A stretch of DNA of 32,000 nucleotides from Ignicoccus hospitalis KIN4/I. GTDB taxonomy: Archaea > Thermoproteota > Thermoprotei_A > Sulfolobales > Ignicoccaceae. How positions within the stretch are numbered: position 1 is the first letter of the stretch; each line of letters begins with the position of its first letter. The notes under the pieces were generated by a model. It was not told where the DNA came from. It saw only the letters and a program-made list of their open reading frames with translations, and did not search any database. The position numbers and the translations under genes were made by a program. Shown piece after piece: positions 8,648 through 29,006 of this stretch. The stretch is taken from positions 300,001 to 332,000 of the forward strand of contig NC_009776.1 of assembly GCF_000017945.1 (NCBI RefSeq), in the 5' to 3' direction.

Positions 8648-9364
8648 TTGAAGCCCCAACACTTGACCGCCAAGCCGGGAGAGGTGGCCGAGAAGGTAGT
8701 CGTGGTCGGCGACCCCGCGAGGGCCAGGGACGTGGCTAACAAGTTCTTGGAGGATGTCAAACTGGTGAGCGAGAACAGAGAGTTGCTGGTCTTCACCGGC
8801 ACCTACAAGGGGAGTAGGGTGAGCGTGGCGGTCCACGGCATAGGTGCACCTTCTGCCGCGATAGTGATTGAGGAGCTCGCCATGCTTGGGGCTAAGGAAG
8901 TGGTTAGGTTGGGGACGGCCGGGAGCATGAAGAAGGAAATAGACGTGAAGGACGCGGTCGTGGTCACCGGGGCGGCGCACTACTGCGGGGGCACCTTGGG
9001 CGTCTACGCGCCAAACGTGTGCTTGCCCAACTCCCCGGACCCGTGGCTTACCGTGAAGCTGTACGAGAAGGCTAAAGAGGTCGGGCTGAGGGTCCACTAT
9101 GGCCCCGTGGTAAGCAACGACGCCTTCTACGCTGAAAGCCCGGACTTCGTGGAGTTCTGGACTAAGAGGGGGGTGGTGGCGGTGGAGATGGAGTGTGCCA
9201 CGCTCTTCGCCTTGGGCTGGATGAGGGGTTTAAGGACCGGGGCCTTAGTAGTAATAGCCGACAGCTTAGTAGACCCCAACAAGAAGGACCTCCTCCACCA
9301 CGAGGAGCTCGCGGACGCCATGGACAAGGCCGCGAGGGCGGTGCTGGAGGCGCTCACCTCTTGA
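8648..9364 (+). CDS. PNP/UDP-family nucleoside phosphorylase (purine nucleoside / uridine / MTA phosphorylase, hexameric type)
   Basis: VVVVGDPARA, GTYKGSRVSVAVHGIGAPSAAIVIEEL, VRLGTAGS and VAVEMECATLF are the family's conserved blocks. TTG start. Confidence 0.85.
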   Translation: MKPQHLTAKPGEVAEKVVVVGDPARARDVANKFLEDVKLVSENRELLVFTGTYKGSRVSVAVHGIGAPSAAIVIEELAMLGAKEVVRLGTAGSMKKEIDVKDAVVVTGAAHYCGGTLGVYAPNVCLPNSPDPWLTVKLYEKAKEVGLRVHYGPVVSNDAFYAESPDFVEFWTKRGVVAVEMECATLFALGWMRGLRTGALVVIADSLVDPNKKDLLHHEELADAMDKAARAVLEALTS

Positions 9365-9966
9365 ACTTCAAGGTTTACCTCTCGATTAAGAAGCTTTTGA
9401 GCGAGGGGTGCTCGGAGCTCCCCGCGGCGTGGGCGGCGGAGCTCAAGCTCTTGGACTGTTACGAGGACGGGGGGAAGGTGTGTTGTCCCTCCCCCGAGGA
9501 AGTGGCCCTCTGGGCAGTTATCAGGGGAGTAATGGGCGAGCACGAGGCCGCGAGCTACCTCAACTGGAAGGCCTTCGAATCTTACGTAGCTAGGGCGCTC
9601 GAGGAGGCGGGCTTCGAGACGCTGAAGAACGTGAGGGTCAGGGCGGGCGACAAGCTGGCGGAGTTCGACGTTATAGGCTACGACGGGGACAAGGTGATAG
9701 TGGTGGAGTGTAAGAGGTGGAGCGCCTTCCGGAGGTCTGCCCTCTTGAAGGTCGCGGAGGAACACAAGGCGAAAGTCGAGAGGGCCGCTTACTGGTTGGC
9801 CAAGCTCGGAAAGAGGGCGCTGCCGGTGGTGGTAACCCTAAGGGGGACCCCGATAAGGGAAGGGGCTCTGATAGTTCCCATAAAATCGTTTAAGGGGTTT
9901 ATCGAAGAAGTGGACTTGGCTTTCCTAGAGGGCCCCGTGGTGACGCTCAGCAGCTCACGTTCATGA
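9361..9966 (+). CDS. PD-(D/E)xK nuclease-fold protein (Mrr/Hjc-like restriction-endonuclease fold)
   Basis: FESYVARALEEAGFETLKNVRV..AEFDVIGYDGDKVIVVECKRW fits the helix, then D, then ExK layout. The track ORF starts at 9193 inside the phosphorylase gene. I place the start at TTG 9361, which overlaps that gene's TGA (TTGA). Confidence 0.55.
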   Translation: MNFKVYLSIKKLLSEGCSELPAAWAAELKLLDCYEDGGKVCCPSPEEVALWAVIRGVMGEHEAASYLNWKAFESYVARALEEAGFETLKNVRVRAGDKLAEFDVIGYDGDKVIVVECKRWSAFRRSALLKVAEEHKAKVERAAYWLAKLGKRALPVVVTLRGTPIREGALIVPIKSFKGFIEEVDLAFLEGPVVTLSSSRS

Positions 9967-18374: not shown

Positions 18375-19964
18375 TCAGCCCAGCTTGACATAGCCCCCGG
18401 GCGCGGCGGCCTTGGCTAACTCCTCCGCTACCACGTTTCTTATCAACATCACCAGCACTGAGTAGTTGGAGAGCAGGCGCTCGGCCACCATCTTATCGAT
18501 CTTGTACTTCTCTATCAAGTTGTTGTACAAGGCTTCCAGTATCTCCGGCCTGTTCAACAGCTCTACCATTATCAAAGTTAAGTTGGACTTAAACGCTTCG
18601 AACTTGTCCTCCAACGAGTTCAACCTCGAGACGGTCGTGTTGAGGATTTCCCTGGTCTTTAAACTCTCCAGCCTCAGTTTCTCTATATTGTTCTTGATTT
18701 CGGTTAATTCCTTGGAGATGGAAGTTTGATTCGAGATTACTTGGGCTAACGTAGCGTTGAGCCTAGCGTACCCAGACTTCAAATTAGCTATTTCCTCCTC
18801 TACCTTCTTTATTTCCGACAACTTCGCCCTGAGTTCTTCCAGGTAGCTGGACACTTTCTTTAAGCTTTCTAACTCCTTCTTCACTGCGTTCAGCTCTTCC
18901 CTCGCGGTCCCAAGCTCCAACGCTAAGTTGGTTACGTTGGATATAAGGATCTTCAAGTCCTCTTTGGTTGCGAATGTCGCTTGGGCTACCTCTAAGTCCT
19001 TCACTTCCTTGTAAAGTTCGTTCAAGCTCTTCTCTAAGGTCTCTACCTTAGGCACGAACGAGGTCAGCTTCAACTCCAACTCTGAGGCGCGCTTCGCGAA
19101 GGTCTGGTTGAGCGCTTCTAACGAGGTCTTGAGCTGGTCCAAGGTCCTTTGCATTTCTATTACGGCGGAACTCAAGGACGCCATCTCTCCCTTAGTCTTC
19201 ATTAGGTCCGTCTTCGTCTTGTTAAGTTCTATGTTAAGGGCTATAATCTTCGTATTGAACTGGTCTTTGAGTTTGTTCAAGTTTTCATTTAATGACTTAT
19301 ATTCCTTCATAATTTGCGTTAGCTGATTCCTCAAGCCTTTTATCTGGGCCTCGAAGGCGCGTTCCAGCTCGTCCAACCTATTCATTATTGTGCTGCTCTC
19401 ATTCTTCAAGAGCTCGACGTCTTTCAACTTTAGGTTTATAGGTATTCCTTGTACTAGTCCAACTAGCGTTCCTAGCGCTAAAGCGGAGAGCGCGAGGGAT
19501 ATTATAGATAAAACGATTGGTGCCTTACTGGTCTTGGTAACTACCTTGACCTCGCGGATCGGTGCCTTAGGGGCTTCGGCAACCGTCCCGAGGGGTCCCT
19601 GCTCTGGAGTTCCCGGAGGGGCCTCCGGCTCCGGAGGGGGAGGAGGAGAAGGAGGGGCCTTCTCTAGGGTCTCCTCTACGAACGGCTTGGCCTCCTCTTC
19701 CTCCTCCCCTCCCATACCCCTCAGGGCGTCGGCCGTCTTGTTCAAGCCCACTCTCTCCGCCTTCTCGGCCAGCTCTTGGGACTTCAACCTCTGTTTGCTT
19801 ATCTGCTCGGCCAAGCTCTGGTCCAAGGCAGCCTTCTCTTCCTCGTCCAACTTTGGGTACTTGTTCTCGGAAACCAATTCCAATATGTTGTTTATGCAGT
19901 TTACGTCGAACCTCTCACAGCCGGCGTCTTCCATCAATATCCGGAGCACGTCCACTACCATCAC
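18375..19964 (-). CDS. bitopic membrane protein with a long extracytoplasmic coiled coil
   Basis: 529 aa. It has an N-terminal domain of about 100 aa and a Pro-rich linker PPSPPPPPEPEAPPGTPEQGP. A single TM follows (aa ~149-172, nt 19449-19520). Then comes about 320 aa of heptad-like K/E/L/N-rich sequence carrying 9 N-x-S/T sequons. Confidence 0.8.
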   Translation of the reverse strand: MMVVDVLRILMEDAGCERFDVNCINNILELVSENKYPKLDEEEKAALDQSLAEQISKQRLKSQELAEKAERVGLNKTADALRGMGGEEEEEAKPFVEETLEKAPPSPPPPPEPEAPPGTPEQGPLGTVAEAPKAPIREVKVVTKTSKAPIVLSIISLALSALALGTLVGLVQGIPINLKLKDVELLKNESSTIMNRLDELERAFEAQIKGLRNQLTQIMKEYKSLNENLNKLKDQFNTKIIALNIELNKTKTDLMKTKGEMASLSSAVIEMQRTLDQLKTSLEALNQTFAKRASELELKLTSFVPKVETLEKSLNELYKEVKDLEVAQATFATKEDLKILISNVTNLALELGTAREELNAVKKELESLKKVSSYLEELRAKLSEIKKVEEEIANLKSGYARLNATLAQVISNQTSISKELTEIKNNIEKLRLESLKTREILNTTVSRLNSLEDKFEAFKSNLTLIMVELLNRPEILEALYNNLIEKYKIDKMVAERLLSNYSVLVMLIRNVVAEELAKAAAPGGYVKLG

Positions 19965-22626: not shown

Positions 22627-23802
22627 GTGGAGGGAGGCAAGTACTTGGAGGTCACCGGGCCGGCAGCGGTGAGGTTAGTAAGGGGCAGCGCGGTCCTAAT
22701 GGGGAAGACGTTAGAGGAGAACGACGTCATAGTGGTTCCCCAGTGGAGGACTTACGCGTTCAAGGCTATAAAGGACTCCGAGCTGGACGTTTCAATTACA
22801 TCGACGACGAAGGTAGAAATTAAGGACAAGAACGTTATGGACGAGTGGGTAAAGGGGCTCTCGAAGATCGTGGGAGCGAAGAGGGTTGTGATACTGGGCC
22901 CCACGGACTCCGGGAAGAGCAGCGCGACTGCAACCTTAGTTAACATGAATTTGAACGAGGGCTACGAGGTCAGCGTGGTGGACAGCGACGTTGGCCAGAG
23001 CAACTTGTGCTTCCCCACTATGGTGTGCAAGGCGAAGGTCAAGGGTTACGTCTTCACGTTGAGCGACTTGGAGGCCGAGGAGCAACGCTTTACCGGCACC
23101 ATAACCCCGGCGGTGGAGAAGAGCCGGATAATCTCCTCCGTCTCTTCCCTCTCCAAGGGGAGGGTAATAGTTGACACCGACGGGTGGGTGGACGGCTTCG
23201 AGGCCGGCTGCTACAAGCACGAGCTCCTCCGGGCGGTCTCGCCGGAGGTCGTTGTTTACATGGGTAAGGCCCCCTGGTGGGCCAAGGGCCCTTGGGAGCT
23301 GGTGGAGCTTCCCCCCTCCACGGGCAAGGAGAGGAGTAGGAACGACAGGAGGAGCATAAGGAAAAATAAGTACAGGAAGGCCCTAGAGGGGTGCAAGACT
23401 AAGGACATAGACCTAACTAAGGTTAACGCACTCATGTCCGTTATATTCAACAACCCGTGGGGCGACGAGGTCCTTAAGGAGGGCGTGAAGGAGCTCATAG
23501 GGGTCAAGCCGTTATTGGTGGTGCCTTGGGGCAACAAGGTAGTCGCCGTAATAAAGAGGGGCTTGAAGTACAAGAAAGTACCGAACGTCGAGGTGCTGGA
23601 GGAGGGCGAGGAGAGGGGGCTGTTGGTAGGCTTGGGGGACGGCTCCGGCAACGAGCGGCTGGGCGTCGTGGTGAAGATAGACCACTTGAAGAAAGTTATG
23701 AAAGTAAAGACTTGTATGGAGGAAGAGCCCCTTTACGTTATATTCGGGAGGGTCAAGCTCGAAGAGGACTACAGCGACAAGGTTGTAAAAAAGCCCTTTT
23801 AG
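22627..23802 (+). CDS. Clp1/Grc3-family polynucleotide 5'-hydroxyl kinase
   Basis: P-loop ILGPTDSGKSS followed by VSVVDSDVGQS (the Clp1 DxDxGQ motif), preceded by an N-terminal beta domain. Confidence 0.75.
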   Translation: MEGGKYLEVTGPAAVRLVRGSAVLMGKTLEENDVIVVPQWRTYAFKAIKDSELDVSITSTTKVEIKDKNVMDEWVKGLSKIVGAKRVVILGPTDSGKSSATATLVNMNLNEGYEVSVVDSDVGQSNLCFPTMVCKAKVKGYVFTLSDLEAEEQRFTGTITPAVEKSRIISSVSSLSKGRVIVDTDGWVDGFEAGCYKHELLRAVSPEVVVYMGKAPWWAKGPWELVELPPSTGKERSRNDRRSIRKNKYRKALEGCKTKDIDLTKVNALMSVIFNNPWGDEVLKEGVKELIGVKPLLVVPWGNKVVAVIKRGLKYKKVPNVEVLEEGEERGLLVGLGDGSGNERLGVVVKIDHLKKVMKVKTCMEEEPLYVIFGRVKLEEDYSDKVVKKPF

Positions 23803-26800
23803 CTACACTTGACGCAGTAAGGCCCGTTGACCAGCACGTGCCAGTTCGCCTTGTTTATCATTATTATGCTCGTGCCGTTCAGTTCGCTGGGCTTGGTCAA
23901 AGAGCTCCAAGTCAGTATAGCATCAACGTTCTTAGAGGTGTTGTTTGCGTAGCTCCTCATGATCACTATCAGCGGAGGTACCGCGCCGTAGTCGTCGTTG
24001 CTCAGCCCTATCACGAAGGACTTCACGTCGTCAACCTTCGTCGTCATGTTGTTGAACGTAATCAAGTAGTCGTCAGTCAGCGAGACGGCCAGCGTCAAGT
24101 TGTTATAGTAGTTAGTGACGTTCGTTGATAAGAGCTCTGCGGTCTTGTTGAACGCTACCGCGTTCCACTTGTCCGCGCTGCTGACCGGCAAGTTGAGCTT
24201 GGCCGCGAAGACTGTCGGCAAGCCGGAGGTGGAGTTGTGCCAAGCTAGTTCGCCGTTCCAGAAAGCCGCCACCGTTACGTTGGTCATGAAGTCAGTGTAG
24301 TTGTAGAACGGATTCTTGGTGGTGGCGTAGGAGCCGTACTCGTTCAGCTGCAATGACGTCAAGTTGCCCAGCACGTCCACTTGGAGGGTGGCGTTGTAGG
24401 GCCCGGTGACATTGATTACCGCGTATCCCTTGCTCTTGACGTATACGATTGGCGCGTCCACCTTCGGAGAGTACACGTCTGGCACTTCCACGGTTACGTA
24501 GTCGTCCAGCGGTATCTTCGGTAAAGTCCTCACGAACATGTAGTAGTAAACCCTGTCGTCCGTGCCAAGCTTGCTTACGGTTGTAGCGTTGTTCCTGTCA
24601 GCGTAGCTGAAGCCTATGTACTTCACTTGGTCAGGCAACAGCTGGCTATACTCGACTTTCAGCTTGTATGCCGAAAGGTCGAGCGTGCCGTAGTAGAACA
24701 GCTCGCCCAGGGGACCGTTCTCGTGTATGTTGAAGTACACAGCCGGCGTGCTGAGGTCATACTTCACCACGTTGTAGTATACCTTGTCCGGGGAGCTGAG
24801 CTTGTATGCCGGCTCGCTGGCGTACTCTACCAAGTAGGACCTCCAAGCGTTGGACCAGAAGCCGTTCCTCGAGGTCACGAAGCGGTGCCAGTCGTCCACG
24901 TCCTCGTAGAGCATCCACTTCAACCAGCTCTTGCCGTCGCTCACCGCCCCGGGGACGTAGGGGTAGATTATGTTCCAACCGCCGAAGTAGTCGCCGTAGC
25001 TGCCGCCGTTCATGCCCACCCTAACTTCGTAGAAGCTCCCCCTCGGCACTTCCGGCCACAGCCAGAAGTTCCATACCACCCTTTGACTGAGCCAAGTGCT
25101 GTTTAGTACTATGCCGTTCCTCTGGGCGTTGATTATGCCGGCCCTTACGGTCTCAGCCGCCTTCCAGAGCGGCGTACAAGTCACCACGCCGGGCTCCCCG
25201 TTCAGCGGCGCGCCGTAGATGGTCGACTTGACCACTTGTAAGCCCTTGACTATGGTTGCATTTATTTGGCCCACCAGCGGCAAGCAGCCGTCGCTATTGG
25301 AGTAGTCGTAGAGCTGCGGGAAGCTGATCCTCGGTCTGCCCAAGCGGTAGGGGTACCAGTACAGCATGTACACCTTCGCCTTCTCTTTGCCAGCCCCGGC
25401 TACGTATGCGTAGAGCCCGTGCGCGTCGGGCTCGAGCGTGTAAGCGTAAACCGGAGGGCACTGAGCCGCGTCGTAGGCCTCGAAGCACTGGAACGCCGTC
25501 TGCAAGCTGTCGAAGCTGTCTCCGTACACGGTTACGTTGTATATCACTCCGGAGAACGCTGCCATGGTCTCTTCGTCTATGTTGTAGTCGTAGTACCTGC
25601 TTGCGTCCGATATCACGAAGGCCGGAGTATTACCGTTAAACAACTCGTACATTAAGGAAGCTAGGCCCCCTCCACTGCTAACTTGGTTTATCTCACTCAG
25701 AACGTCGCCCAAGACCGGGGAGGGCGGCAACGAGCCCTCGAGCGTTTCCAAGGACTTGACGTATACCTCCCACTTATCGGTGGCGTTGTTGAAGGTGGCG
25801 ACTATCATGTACTTCTTCCCGGGGACCAGCGTGGTGGGTGCCACAGCCTTGGGTATTATCCTATAGCCGTAATTAGTTATCTGGAACAGCGCCGGCGCGC
25901 CTCTGTAAATCGCCAGCATCCAGCCAGTGCCAGTAGTTGGGTCCGTTTGGTAAGCTATGGGGAACAGCCAGTAGCCGACGTAAGGCGCTCTGATGAAGAA
26001 GCTGTCGTCACGCCAAGTGGGGTCTATGTAGTAGTTCAGCTGGTCCTCGTCGGCGAAGTTGAAGGCCCCGTCCCACCTCACTACGGCCACCACGCTGAAG
26101 GAGTTCCTGTTCGCGACGAAGTTAAGCTTGTTCTGCGGGTCATCGAACACAACTCCGGTCATGGTGAAGGCGTAGCCGGGGAAGTTCCAAGTCCAAGAGT
26201 AGCTATCTAGCTCCACCCTCGCTCCGTAGAAGTCAACGTAGACCGGGAACACCTCCCTCGGGTCGGAGGCGCCGTTCTCCCCTACCAGTACGGTGAGCGT
26301 CACCTTTCCGCCGGCCGGCAAGTAGGGCACCTTGACCCAGACGTAGCCGTCGCTCCTCGCGGGCCCATTCCTTTGTACGGGGACGCTGGTGCAGTTGCCC
26401 ACGACGGTCTCGTAGCAGAACTTCACGGGCGCGCCCAGCTCGTCTATGATGGTTATGGGGGTGGCGTTCAGCTGTGCCGGTAACTTGACCCTAATCACTT
26501 GGTCGAACAGCGCCTCGGAGTTGGGGTTCTCTATGGTTATCTTATAGCTCCTAACGGTGCTGTCCACCGGATACTGGAGGCCCAAGAACTTCAGCCCGGA
26601 GGCCGTGGTAACATTGACCGCGTAGGTGGTAGTTAGGTTGGCGGCGGGGGCGTAACAGACGTCGTAGCCGCTGAAGCTCGCGCACGGGTAGGCCAGCCCG
26701 GGGAACTTTACCTCGTGCTCTAAGATCTTGCCGTCGAACGGGGTCCCGTCGGAGCCCTTGGGGTACTGCCCGGCTATGCCTAGGTAAAGGCAGACCACCG

Positions 26801-27824
26801 CGCTGTACTGGACCAAGGAGTCCGGCCTCATTGGCGCGGGGGCGGTGAAGTTGAACGTTAGGACTCCGGAGCTCCTCCACAAGGGCTTCTCGGCGGTTAA
26901 GTTAGTGAAGGTGTAGCTCCAAGGCAAGTAGGAGCCGGCGCTCCAGCTCACTTGGTATACTTGCGGCGTGGAAGTTATCCTCATTACCGTTATGTTCCTC
27001 AGGTACACGTAGTCCAAGTAGTACCTCAAGGGGCTGCTCGCCGGGGCGGCCTTCTCCACTATATCTTTGAGGTCTATGACTACGCTGGTGGGCACGTAGT
27101 TCCTAGTCCCGCTGAACTCTGGGTTCAGTATTAGCGCAATTTGGTAGGCGTAGTTGTCGCCTACCACGGTCTTGGGCGGAGGGCATATGTACTGCAGCGG
27201 GTTAACGTTCCCCCCGGCCAGCACCGTTATCGGGCCTATTGAGAACACCGTGGTAGTTTGCTGGATCGTGGTCTGCTGGAGGACGCCGCCCGTGGTCTTT
27301 AAGCAGTCGTCCACCTCTTTCCACCCCACGCCTTCTATCAACATCCTGACCGAGTAGACCTTATCTCCCTCTCCCAAGTTGATAACCAAGGCTGCTGGTA
27401 TCTTGAGCGTACCAAACTCTTTGTATATCGGCTCGTAGTTGTGCTGGCAAGCGCTAGTTACTTTAGTGTTGCTAGAAATCCACTTGTCCTTAGTGTAAAT
27501 CTTCGAGACGTTCGACGTCCCCGAGCTCATGTAGACTTGAATGGCCTTCACGTATTGGCAGAAGGCCGGTATGTCGTTGGTCTTTATCACTAGGACTGGG
27601 CCCTCGGCCCAGGGGTCCTTCTTAATGAACACGTAACACGCGGACAAGCTCTGAGCCACGCTCGTGGCCAGCTGCTGCCTCTGGACCGCTTGAACGGTCT
27701 TCTCGCTTATCGCTACTTGTTTGCTGAGCACGTTTACCATTAGAACTACAGCCGCCAGCAGTATGCTAACTATCACTATGAGCGCTATTAGCCCCGCTAC
27801 CCCGCCCTTCTTTACTTCCGTCAC
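23799..27824 (-). CDS. 1341-aa surface protein: prepilin-type N-terminus, DUF2341-like and LamG/concanavalin-like modules, sequon-rich C-terminus
   Basis: GTG start. The N-terminus MTEVKKGGVAGLIALIVIVSILLAAVVLMV is the only hydrophobic segment. The block YKITIENPNSEALFDQVIRVKL...DGYVWVKVPYLPAGGKVTLTVLVGENGAS spans aa ~424-535. SFSVVAVVRWDG...KKYMIVATFNNATDKWEVYVKS lies within aa ~545-770. I count about 27 N-x-S/T sequons by hand. Confidence 0.85.
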   Translation of the reverse strand: MTEVKKGGVAGLIALIVIVSILLAAVVLMVNVLSKQVAISEKTVQAVQRQQLATSVAQSLSACYVFIKKDPWAEGPVLVIKTNDIPAFCQYVKAIQVYMSSGTSNVSKIYTKDKWISSNTKVTSACQHNYEPIYKEFGTLKIPAALVINLGEGDKVYSVRMLIEGVGWKEVDDCLKTTGGVLQQTTIQQTTTVFSIGPITVLAGGNVNPLQYICPPPKTVVGDNYAYQIALILNPEFSGTRNYVPTSVVIDLKDIVEKAAPASSPLRYYLDYVYLRNITVMRITSTPQVYQVSWSAGSYLPWSYTFTNLTAEKPLWRSSGVLTFNFTAPAPMRPDSLVQYSAVVCLYLGIAGQYPKGSDGTPFDGKILEHEVKFPGLAYPCASFSGYDVCYAPAANLTTTYAVNVTTASGLKFLGLQYPVDSTVRSYKITIENPNSEALFDQVIRVKLPAQLNATPITIIDELGAPVKFCYETVVGNCTSVPVQRNGPARSDGYVWVKVPYLPAGGKVTLTVLVGENGASDPREVFPVYVDFYGARVELDSYSWTWNFPGYAFTMTGVVFDDPQNKLNFVANRNSFSVVAVVRWDGAFNFADEDQLNYYIDPTWRDDSFFIRAPYVGYWLFPIAYQTDPTTGTGWMLAIYRGAPALFQITNYGYRIIPKAVAPTTLVPGKKYMIVATFNNATDKWEVYVKSLETLEGSLPPSPVLGDVLSEINQVSSGGGLASLMYELFNGNTPAFVISDASRYYDYNIDEETMAAFSGVIYNVTVYGDSFDSLQTAFQCFEAYDAAQCPPVYAYTLEPDAHGLYAYVAGAGKEKAKVYMLYWYPYRLGRPRISFPQLYDYSNSDGCLPLVGQINATIVKGLQVVKSTIYGAPLNGEPGVVTCTPLWKAAETVRAGIINAQRNGIVLNSTWLSQRVVWNFWLWPEVPRGSFYEVRVGMNGGSYGDYFGGWNIIYPYVPGAVSDGKSWLKWMLYEDVDDWHRFVTSRNGFWSNAWRSYLVEYASEPAYKLSSPDKVYYNVVKYDLSTPAVYFNIHENGPLGELFYYGTLDLSAYKLKVEYSQLLPDQVKYIGFSYADRNNATTVSKLGTDDRVYYYMFVRTLPKIPLDDYVTVEVPDVYSPKVDAPIVYVKSKGYAVINVTGPYNATLQVDVLGNLTSLQLNEYGSYATTKNPFYNYTDFMTNVTVAAFWNGELAWHNSTSGLPTVFAAKLNLPVSSADKWNAVAFNKTAELLSTNVTNYYNNLTLAVSLTDDYLITFNNMTTKVDDVKSFVIGLSNDDYGAVPPLIVIMRSYANNTSKNVDAILTWSSLTKPSELNGTSIIMINKANWHVLVNGPYCVKCS

Positions 27825-27879
27825 TGTAAAGCCACCGTAGGACCGCTGTGCCGACGAGAGTTTTAATGGAGGAATTGCC

Positions 27880-27895
27880 GTTTTCGTACGGAAAC
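27880..27895. promoter_or_regulatory. 16-bp near-perfect palindrome (GTTTTCGTACGGAAAC) in the divergent promoter region of the pilin-like module
   Basis: 7 of 8 half-site positions are complementary; the exception is a T/G pair. It lies between a minus-strand ATTAAAA (27861-27867, 37-43 nt upstream of the giant gene's GTG) and TTAAAG (27921-27926, 23-28 nt upstream of the TTG at 27949). Confidence 0.3.
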
Positions 27896-27948
27896 ACTTG
27901 CTGGCACTCCTAAAGCTCGGTTAAAGGCGGCGGAGGGGGAGCTCGCGC

Positions 27949-28521
27949 TTGAAGAGGGCTCAGAGCGAGCTGCTGGCGGCGATGCTGCTAGCAGCCATAG
28001 TGCTGGGGGCCCTCACTTGGTTGGTGGCCCAGTGGGAGAAAGGGGTCGGGAACTTGATCAAGAGGGTAAACGAAGTGACCGTCCGTTCCGCCAAGCTCTC
28101 TATAAGGATAGACTGCAGCGGGAACTACCTCGTCTTCCTAGACCCTACGGTCCCTTCCGTCATTGACGCCGAGTCCACAGAGTATAACAACTTACGCTAC
28201 TGTTACGCGGAACTGGGAGCTAGCTCCTACAAGGCCTACTTCGTCCTGCCCTTCTATTGCAACGGGGAGCCCAGCGCCTACTTCATCTTCGGCACTTTCT
28301 CGAGGAATCCAGTAGACAACGTGACTTTGTACACCTTTAAGCCCTCATCGTCCAGCGCCGTAGTGCCTCAAGTGGCCTGCGACAAGATAAACTTCATGCC
28401 TTTCGCGACTTTACACATAGTCTTTCCCGACTCAAGCGAGAAGGTGGTTTCTTGCTTCACTAACATAACTTTGGTCAACGGCGAGTACTTGTGGGGTGTG
28501 TCCTCATGCGTAGGGGCCTAG
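27949..28521 (+). CDS. prepilin-like protein (class III signal peptide)
   Basis: MKRAQSELLAAMLLAAIVLGALTWLV has a short basic N-terminus, a small residue, a QSE motif and a hydrophobic helix. The mature part has 6 Cys and 2 sequons. TTG start with GGAGG 12 nt upstream. Confidence 0.65.
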   Translation: MKRAQSELLAAMLLAAIVLGALTWLVAQWEKGVGNLIKRVNEVTVRSAKLSIRIDCSGNYLVFLDPTVPSVIDAESTEYNNLRYCYAELGASSYKAYFVLPFYCNGEPSAYFIFGTFSRNPVDNVTLYTFKPSSSSAVVPQVACDKINFMPFATLHIVFPDSSEKVVSCFTNITLVNGEYLWGVSSCVGA

Positions 28522-29006
28522 GCGCTCTGGAAGTGGCGATACTGAGTGCGGTGACCGTGGTCGCGGCGGCGCTGTTGGGCTCCGCGCTCTTGCGCCCGCC
28601 GGCGGAGCCGCAAACGCCAGCGCTCGTAGAGGTGGAAGCGGCAGTGGCCCTAGGGCCTCAGAAGGACTCGGCGGGTCAGACGGTGAGCGCGTCTCAGCAG
28701 TGCTCGGAGCTGGCGTCCGCGCTCTACGCCGAGGGCCTCCTATCGTCAAAGAAGATCATCGAAATTGGAAACTCCGGCGCGACCTACGCTTACGCAGTCC
28801 TAATACGCGTGATGAGCCCCGGGGAGGTGAAGGGGGTGAAGCTCAGCAGCTTGGAGACCGGACAAACCCTATTCGTCGCTCAGAAGAGGGTGGCGCTCTC
28901 CCCCGGGAGGTACTTGTTGTGCGTCTATCGCGACAAGTACTACCCGAGCTCAGTGGTGGAGCTCCTCGGGGCCTCTGAGGTGTGCGTCAGCTGCGCAGTG
29001 CGCTGA
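28506..29006 (+). CDS. prepilin-like protein (class III signal; twin-arginine signal is an alternative reading)
   Basis: From ATG 28506 it reads MRRGLGALEVAILSAVTVVAAALLGSALL. A cut after RRG would put Glu at +5, as in type IV pilins. It overlaps the upstream gene by 16 nt. The track start at 28491 (GTG) is also possible. Confidence 0.6.
   Translation: MRRGLGALEVAILSAVTVVAAALLGSALLRPPAEPQTPALVEVEAAVALGPQKDSAGQTVSASQQCSELASALYAEGLLSSKKIIEIGNSGATYAYAVLIRVMSPGEVKGVKLSSLETGQTLFVAQKRVALSPGRYLLCVYRDKYYPSSVVELLGASEVCVSCAVR

Follow-up and report, generated by a model that had tools for sequence, protein, structure and literature searches.

Igni_0370 (Iho_0370), the largest gene of a 32,000-nucleotide stretch of the Ignicoccus hospitalis KIN4/I genome (contig NC_009776.1, positions 300,001 to 332,000, hereafter the window), encodes a protein that, on balance, we read as an archaeal modular type IV pilin-like glycoprotein working together with two minor pilins. 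The broader statement, that it is a pilin-like, PibD-processed, extracytoplasmic glycoprotein acting with two small partners, is in our judgement likely. The most likely residence of the protein is the cell envelope or a filament, to which an N-terminus of the pilus-subunit type would hold it; a position specifically at the tip of the Iho670 fibre is a narrower proposal that we consider rather doubtful. We infer this from sequence, synteny and a single proteomic data set. The setting is an organism devoid of an S-layer, surrounded by an outer cellular membrane, serving as host to Nanoarchaeum equitans and equipped with a single type IV filament machine. An original prediction, made from the letters of the window without database searches, had proposed a prepilin-anchored, sequon-dense DUF2341/LamG surface protein, encoded by a gene of lower G+C content than the flanking housekeeping genes. 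The large, sequon-rich, extracytoplasmic DUF2341 protein with a prepilin-like N-terminus has stood, as have its pilin-like neighbours, which recur in seven loci; the LamG assignment has been reduced to a weak hint and the low G+C content was refuted.

The open reading frame (ORF) listing and translation bear out the length of 1341 residues and the rank of largest ORF in the window. The product is 100% identical to the I. hospitalis "DUF2341 domain-containing protein" (ABU81553.1 / WP_011998405.1 / UniProt A8A9F1), and the locus tags Igni_0370, Igni_0371 and Igni_0372 follow from the order of the genes listed by Giannone et al. 2011 (PMC3149612, Table S1), where Igni_0370 has no arCOG. The protein is absent from the text of that article, and no discussion of it was found in the literature searched.

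The first line of evidence is the N-terminus. After MTEVKKGG comes a hydrophobic run free of charges, which had been described as the only such segment of the protein, and a hydropathy scan upheld this description: the Kyte-Doolittle mean over 19 residues exceeded 1.6 only in windows starting at residues 3-22 and peaked at 3.4 across residues 3-40. Approximately 23 uncharged hydrophobic residues open the predicted helix, the remainder of which is amphipathic. In the alignments, every relative begins with [KR][KR]GG[IVL] and a hydrophobic helix; G7 of the leader is invariant and G8 nearly so, in relatives sharing about 29-66% identity. These sequences point to PibD cleavage after G7 or G8. When a strict class III-like pattern was applied to the 746 candidate starts of the window, two were retained, those of Igni_0370 and Igni_0371. 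A PDB sequence search with residues 1-180 returned a single match, the archaellin 8cwm (residues 3-67, E = 0.21, not significant), the alignment of which is in register at the prepilin cleavage site (VKKGG/VAGL versus KRKG/LAGL, slashes marking cleavage). No Pfam N_methyl-type match was found in Igni_0370 at E ≤ 1, and the protein carries neither Phe at +1 nor Glu at +5.

The same N-terminus could belong to an ordinary Sec substrate or to an uncleaved signal-anchor, as in a type II membrane protein or an S-layer-like glycoprotein, its pilin-like look being devoid of functional meaning. SignalP, PredSi and TMHMM indeed flagged a plain signal peptide and a transmembrane segment (PMC3149612 Table S1), and no significant match to a pilin family or fold was obtained. 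However, with about 23 residues the hydrophobic run exceeds the length suited to a signal peptidase I substrate and an AxA-type site is not conserved, an uncleaved anchor would leave unexplained the Gly that is invariant at the charged/hydrophobic boundary at 30% identity, and the co-conserved neighbours in seven loci display RRG/LxxLE and [KR]GxSE N-termini. We regard this explanation as quite improbable because of the invariant boundary Gly and of the co-conserved partners with canonical prepilin features.

These partners constitute the second line of evidence. In seven loci, the giant gene lies head-to-head with two small genes while all other flanking genes differ, so that the synteny check supported the existence of a conserved trio amid unrelated surroundings. 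The seven loci are those of I. hospitalis, I. pacificus (L004), I. islandicus (L013), a JGI contig (L005), two metagenome-assembled genomes (MAGs; L006 and L007) and contig L011; in the latter, the trio is still present with a giant protein of divergent cargo, P0037 (L011:1082-3844). The spacer between the divergent genes measures 116-142 bp in all loci. Nothing is conserved within it beyond a Shine-Dalgarno (SD)-like GGTG and the start context, and no shared regulatory motif was detected; the SD-like GGTG is located 8-10 nt 5' of the giant-gene start in four of five related loci.

Both small proteins resemble minor pilins. The family of the 190-residue Igni_0371 aligns at its N-terminus as M[KR](R)[GA]x[SA]E[LVI][LF], with an invariant Glu and conserved cysteines. 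The family of the 166-residue Igni_0372 begins with MRRG/L[GT][AT][LI]E, which corresponds to the canonical prepilin motif RRG/LxxLE with Glu at +5, and this also applies to the L011 member; its best PDB sequence match, Thermus PilA 6xxd, is not significant (E = 0.35). In I. islandicus, the called start of the Igni_0372 homologue (L013:6836-7321, minus strand, 149 residues) seems too far downstream: an upstream in-frame ATG yields MRRGLGTLETLV, with which the prepilin motif reappears and the gene overlaps its predecessor as usual. In I. hospitalis, Igni_0371 and Igni_0372 share 16 nt, and overlaps of 13-31 nt are found in four of the five other loci, a recurrence that suggests translational coupling.

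The third line of evidence is the modular build of the family, which is small. Only eight proteins matched among 5.8 billion sequences, and the 45 matches among 1.84 billion representatives mostly concerned DUF2341 only. A profile search with the family alignment recovered the same eight proteins and no additional homologues, a search with the alignment of the N-terminal module returned only P0015, and a scan of genome contigs for the locus detected only two loci. Full-length relatives, at 32-59% identity, are encoded by I. pacificus (P0003), I. islandicus (P0013, CP006867) and a few MAG or metagenome contigs; between Ignicoccus species, the identity of the giant protein is 36-42%. A hidden Markov model (HMM) of residues 1-423 also matched P0018 (1023 residues), P0037 (920 residues), P0016 and P0008 (2088 residues). 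The middle regions of these four proteins are unlike that of Igni_0370, and the C-terminal strand motif is often kept. In P0037 the middle contains numerous repeats of the GN[VI] type, which hint at a beta-helix, and P0008 carries three DUF2341 copies and a Laminin_G_3 match. As judged from these comparisons, the N-terminal segment of about 420 residues behaves as a carrier for variable cargo, because the same module is joined to differing middle regions in the relatives. Cysteines 63, 126, 174, 214, 345, 381 and 390 of the module are invariant, and nine invariant cysteines fall within residues 63-478 across the relatives. An AlphaFold2 (AF2) model of residues 1-560, with a mean predicted local distance difference test (pLDDT) score of 59.7 and a predicted template modelling (pTM) score of 0.36, consists of a 52-residue helix (residues 8-59) followed by a beta-domain at residues 62-173 (pLDDT 70-83).

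Downstream of the carrier lies the DUF2341 block, which the original prediction had placed at residues ~424-535. Its presence was confirmed by a PF10102 match at residues 484-545 (E = 9.2e-7, 29.7 bits, with the gathering score at 23.4), and PF10102 was found in seven of the eight family members with a best E of 3.5e-30. When the 1.84 billion representatives were searched exhaustively with phmmer, residues ~424-550 were the only part matched by about 30 proteins that are unrelated elsewhere; the boundaries initially given for the block were therefore right.

The LamG/concanavalin-like domain that had been proposed for residues ~545-770 did not find the same support. The Laminin_G/ConA-like Pfam families PF13385, PF02210 and PF00054 gave no match at E ≤ 1 in the query and its six closest relatives, an NCBIfam search of Igni_0370 yielded no LamG/ConA-like family, and the family profile detected no related solved structure in the PDB. 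When residues 546-800 were compared by hhalign with the domains ("DDF...WIRVRKY") located after DUF2341 in other proteins, the probability was 0.04. Laminin_G_3 occurs in one of the eight family members, presumably P0008 (precomputed PF13385), outside the region aligned to residues 548-800. The AF2 model of residues 540-1341 is poor (mean pLDDT 35.7), only residues ~570-695 reaching 55-83. The Foldseek matches of this low-confidence model were mostly neurexin LNS and Gas6 LG domains, legume lectins and CBM66 (probabilities 0.6-1.0, E values from 3e-3 to 0.3, none ≤ 1e-3). At best, this structural evidence is a weak hint of LamG and no confirmation; the middle domain at residues 548-800 is possibly a LamG/ConA-like beta-sandwich, as far as such a model can suggest.

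The sequon load of the protein, estimated by hand at about 27 with 14 in the last ~205 residues, was confirmed with slightly corrected counts. Igni_0370 contains 26 N-x(not P)-S/T sequons as compared to 10.6±2.9 in composition shuffles (maximum 22 in 2000), and its last 205 residues contain 13 as compared to 4.8±1.9. Twenty-four of the 26 are of the N-x-T type and 12 are common to at least four of six homologues. The enrichment is found in all eight relatives (z = 2.7-5.4; about 5 in Igni_0370), and the density reaches 1.94 sequons per 100 residues versus 0-0.5 in cytoplasmic neighbours. Neither self-BLAST nor segment-versus-segment hhalign detected internal repeats in Igni_0370. The C-terminal family HMM matches close relatives only. 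Most family members terminate in INKxNWxVxVNGPxCVKC: a GPxC[VI]KC ending was found in seven of the sequences read, and P0016 ends in GPYCANC. The terminal CxxC could form a disulfide, bind a metal or serve for attachment.

A cell machinery that could serve such a protein is encoded elsewhere in the genome. I. hospitalis possesses a sole prepilin peptidase, PibD (Igni_1405), and an AglB homologue (Igni_0016). It has exactly one type IV pilus (T4P) ATPase, of clade 4, and no archaellum (Makarova 2016 Table S3, PMC4858521); the T4P genes are Igni_1009 for the ATPase and Igni_1010/1011 for TadC. Its known filament is the adhesive Iho670 fibre, the subunit of which carries a class III signal that is experimentally cleaved. 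Beside the fibre gene Igni_0670, Iho_0669 encodes a 548-residue hypothetical protein, positive for a signal peptide by SignalP and PredSi and for a transmembrane domain and not detected by proteomics (PMC3149612 Table S1), which is another candidate accessory or minor pilin-like protein.

On these grounds we propose the following route. Igni_0370 would be inserted into the cytoplasmic membrane in a Sec-dependent manner via its N-terminal hydrophobic segment, PibD would remove the leader of 7-8 residues at [KR][KR]G(G), and AglB would N-glycosylate the large extracytoplasmic body at many of the 26 sequons. The retained N-terminal helix would then pair Igni_0370 with Igni_0371 and Igni_0372 in a three-subunit pilin complex, served by the only T4P machine of the genome. 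Two outcomes can be envisaged: the complex might cap or prime the Iho670 fibre, with DUF2341 and the beta-domains beyond it displayed as an adhesin, or else form a short bindosome-like anchor in the envelope. Placement at the tip or in priming fits the precedents and the missing Glu at +5 in the largest subunit, as in GspK; the bindosome-like placement fits better with the high abundance relative to Iho670 and with the single 33-kDa fibre protein.

Several observations weigh against the modular pilin interpretation. Gly at +1 is atypical for the FlaFind consensus. The PDB sequence matches of the giant protein and of its 166-residue partner are not significant (E = 0.2-0.35), and a Foldseek search of the PDB with the mediocre model of residues 1-560 retrieved no pilins or archaellins, only generic beta-sandwich proteins such as integrin alpha legs at a template modelling (TM) score of ~0.12, which are uninformative. 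No T4P ATPase (PF00437), TadC (PF00482) or PibD gene was found beside the trio, be it in the window or in the related loci. Iho670 fibre preparations are reported as a single 33-kDa protein, and zero spectra were obtained for Igni_0371 and Igni_0372 (PMC3149612). Finally, in whole-cell proteomics Iho_0370 gathered 220 adjusted spectral counts (ASpC) in pure culture and 276 in co-culture (PMC3149612). From the published spectral counts, its length-normalised abundance is 0.21-0.45 of that of Iho670, which far exceeds one tip copy per micrometre-long fibre and argues against a strictly tip-only protein; filament display itself is a prediction, as is a lectin function.

The abundance is what a bindosome-like envelope protein would account for. 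According to this alternative, which we consider unlikely, Igni_0370 would be processed by PibD and kept in the cytoplasmic membrane through its helix, possibly mounted on a short pseudopilus together with Igni_0371 and Igni_0372, as an abundant structural, tethering or binding protein facing the large intermembrane compartment of Ignicoccus; the model would be the Sulfolobus class III sugar-binding proteins with BasABC. In addition to the ratio to the major fibre subunit and the composition of purified fibres, it is consistent with the fact that the trio is never beside an assembly ATPase or TadC, and the terminal CxxC could provide a second attachment point. Two published accounts (PMC3047682, PMC4858521) offer a Sulfolobus precedent in which large globular proteins with class III signals occur with small pilin-like proteins. 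However, Pfam and NCBIfam searches detected no solute-binding or other bindosome-type domain in Igni_0370, and large DUF2341 proteins have been predicted to be pilus adhesins (PMC4858521). Moreover, the very stable Iho670 fibre may be under-counted by spectra, which would inflate the ratio.

It is to be noted that the RSpC value of Iho_0370 nominally rose 1.9-fold from pure culture to co-culture, from 48.0 to 91.4, whereas that of Iho_0670 went from 227 to 204 (PMC3149612). This rise, together with the fast evolution of a surface protein that shares only 36-42% identity between Ignicoccus species, could designate Igni_0370 as a host-side contact factor for Nanoarchaeum equitans, a role compatible with pilin-like anchoring and which we find very improbable. 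Indeed, I. pacificus and I. islandicus, neither of which is known to host N. equitans, carry the trio as well, and Igni_0370 is missing from the I. hospitalis surface proteins (Iho0670, 0759, 0981) that the published text singles out for their enrichment in purified N. equitans.

A more ambitious extension of the modular pilin reading, improbable in our estimate, is that the trio constitutes the adhesive tip or an inter-membrane tether of the sole type IV filament system in a two-membrane archaeon. Through its pilin helix, Igni_0370 would enter the Iho670 machinery at the base or tip, together with Igni_0371 and Igni_0372, and its sequon-dense C-terminal half and terminal CxxC would extend to, or become attached to, either the outer cellular membrane or partners outside the cell, Nanoarchaeum equitans among them. 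If this is true, Igni_0370 would be the first modular pilin of archaea with a definite role in the cell, and would offer a handle on the passage of filaments and proteins through the Ignicoccus outer membrane.

Table 1. Features of Igni_0370 and of the adjoining pilin-like genes (window coordinates; aa, amino acids; pLDDT from AF2 models).
Feature	Coordinates	Strand	Details
Igni_0370 (Iho_0370) ORF	23799..27824	-	1341 aa; GTG start; stop codon included
Predicted class III leader MTEVKKGG, aa 1-8	27801..27824	-	putative PibD cleavage after G7 or G8
Predicted N-terminal alpha-helix, aa 9-59	27648..27800	-	hydropathy scan and AF2 helix 8-59 (pLDDT 40-69)
Carrier module, aa 1-423	26556..27824	-	helix and beta-rich domain; alignments, module HMM, AF2
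DUF2341 beta-sandwich block, aa 424-547	26184..26555	-	Pfam core aa 484-545; AF2 pLDDT 71-79
Middle domain, aa 548-800	25425..26183	-	family-specific; ends in conserved FSGxIYNxT
C-terminal region, aa 801-1341	23802..25424	-	beta-rich; 15 of 26 sequons; AF2 pLDDT below 40
C-terminal CxxC, C1337-V-K-C1340	23805..23816	-	downstream of motif INKxNWxVxVNGP
Divergent intergenic (promoter) region, 124 bp	27825..27948	.	between Igni_0370 and Igni_0371
Igni_0371 (ABU81554.1), 190 aa, minor-pilin-like	27949..28521	+	N-terminus MKRAQSELLAAMLLAAIVLGALTWLV
Igni_0372 (ABU81555.1), 166 aa, minor-pilin-like	28506..29006	+	N-terminus MRRG/LGALEVAIL

The remaining genes of the window are housekeeping genes encoding Pus10, a TrpRS/TyrRS-type synthetase, TatA, ProRS, FBPase, a radical SAM protein, a Clp1-like protein, Sua5, TatC and an NTPase. 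Against this background the giant gene does not stand out in composition. The original prediction had estimated lower G+C in the giant gene than in proS (about 68%), which proved wrong: the G+C content of the Igni_0370 ORF is 56.3% (79% at third codon positions, GC3), as compared to 57.7% for both the window and proS (GC3 82% for the latter). Low G+C and horizontal transfer were rejected, the ORF, proS and the window all lying at 56-58% G+C with GC3 of 79-82%. The sole clearly low-GC gene in the window is Igni_0364 (18375-19964, minus strand), at 49.9% overall and down to 45% at 18501-19500. Its 529-residue product comprises an N-terminal region of ~155 residues, one transmembrane segment (residues ~158-180) and a long coiled coil bearing 10 N-x-S/T sequons (1.9 per 100 residues), and has the appearance of a glycosylated coiled-coil stalk outside the cytoplasm. 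Proteomics detected the protein (32 and 21 ASpC), and its synteny with the trio is found only in I. hospitalis and L005. The genes for TatA/E (PF02416; 6631-6993, plus strand) and TatC (PF00902; 29592-30527, minus strand) are ~23 kb apart in the window. TatC is two genes away from the trio in I. hospitalis and L005; this closeness is probably coincidental since it is absent from the other loci. Lastly, the ORF at 9193-9966 (plus strand), amid purine and nucleoside metabolism genes, has Mrr_cat/NERD nuclease domain matches and may encode a restriction-type or defence-related nuclease.

Part of this picture is already known: the gene is annotated, and the general idea is published. The new elements are the conserved trio, the reusable carrier of ~420 residues, the terminal CxxC, the size of 1.3-2.1 thousand residues and the setting in a two-membrane archaeon. 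The level of Igni_0370 is comparable to that of the fibre subunit. The trio is a candidate for the adhesin of the fibre, for a priming complex or for an envelope structure resembling the bindosome. If the modular pilin reading is true, the "carrier plus effector" principle of modular pilins reaches archaea, in proteins two to three times larger.

How does the trio compare with known systems? Within the same organism, Iho670 (Igni_0670) also has a class III signal and would presumably share its peptidase and assembly machine with Igni_0370, but it has 310 residues and forms the body of the filament. PDB sequence searches with Igni_0370 revealed no similarity to Iho670, returning only 8cwm; the structure of the Iho670 fibre is presumed to be deposited there. 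The Sulfolobus bindosome (BasABC, BasEF) similarly unites large globular glycoproteins carrying prepilin signals with small pilin-like helpers and is abundant in the envelope. In contrast, no solute-binding domain was detected in Igni_0370 and no dedicated ATPase/TadC adjoins the trio; Ignicoccus also differs from Sulfolobus by having no S-layer and by its outer cellular membrane.

The original prediction had mentioned large DUF2341 proteins from surveys of archaeal T4P loci, and Makarova et al. 2016 did propose that those of methanococcal T4P loci are PilY1-like tip adhesins (PMC4858521). These Epd-type proteins (arCOG03508 and others, PMC4858521), the function of which is predicted, resemble Igni_0370 in placing DUF2341 within a very large archaeal protein that accompanies class III-signal proteins. 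Igni_0370, however, lies outside any T4P locus and has its own N-terminal module and C-terminal region, and with other DUF2341 proteins it shares only the DUF2341 block of ~120 residues.

The composition of the trio, one large and two small co-encoded pilin-like proteins, recalls GspK-GspI-GspJ of the type II secretion system and FimU-PilVWX with PilY1 in type IVa pilus priming. GspK is not known to carry Glu5. Likewise, the large member of the trio lacks Glu at +5 and the small Igni_0372 has it, again in a two-membraned organism. These complexes nevertheless have neither sequence nor demonstrated fold similarity with the trio, which is unlinked to ATPase or platform genes and the assembly of which into a complex is predicted, and the Glu5 logic is unestablished for archaeal pilins. 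The GspK-I-J trimer is also mentioned as a precedent by Raynaud et al. 2021 (PMC8179133).

The closest architectural parallel is offered by bacterial modular pilins, which consist of a carrier and an effector, for example a vWA or ConA-like lectin module, and are widespread and probably located at the tip (Raynaud et al. 2021, PMC8179133). In Streptococcus sanguinis PilB (vWA) and PilC (ConA-like lectin), as well as in CofB/TcpB and ComZ (PMC8179133), a pilin-type carrier bears bulky effectors, and this is likewise the predicted organisation of Igni_0370; one carrier is reused with different effectors, as in the relatives of Igni_0370, for which the presentation of binding modules is predicted. 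Igni_0370 differs in being archaeal, heavily sequon-loaded and encoded outside a pilus operon. Its family is far larger (1283-2088 residues), with a carrier of ~420 residues versus ~100-150, and displays no N-methylation/IPR012902-type signature (no Pfam N_methyl at E ≤ 1). Because it has no such signature, no Glu5 and no detectable homology beyond DUF2341, Igni_0370 falls outside the bacterial families; the likeness, as read from the sequences, is one of architecture and not of family membership.

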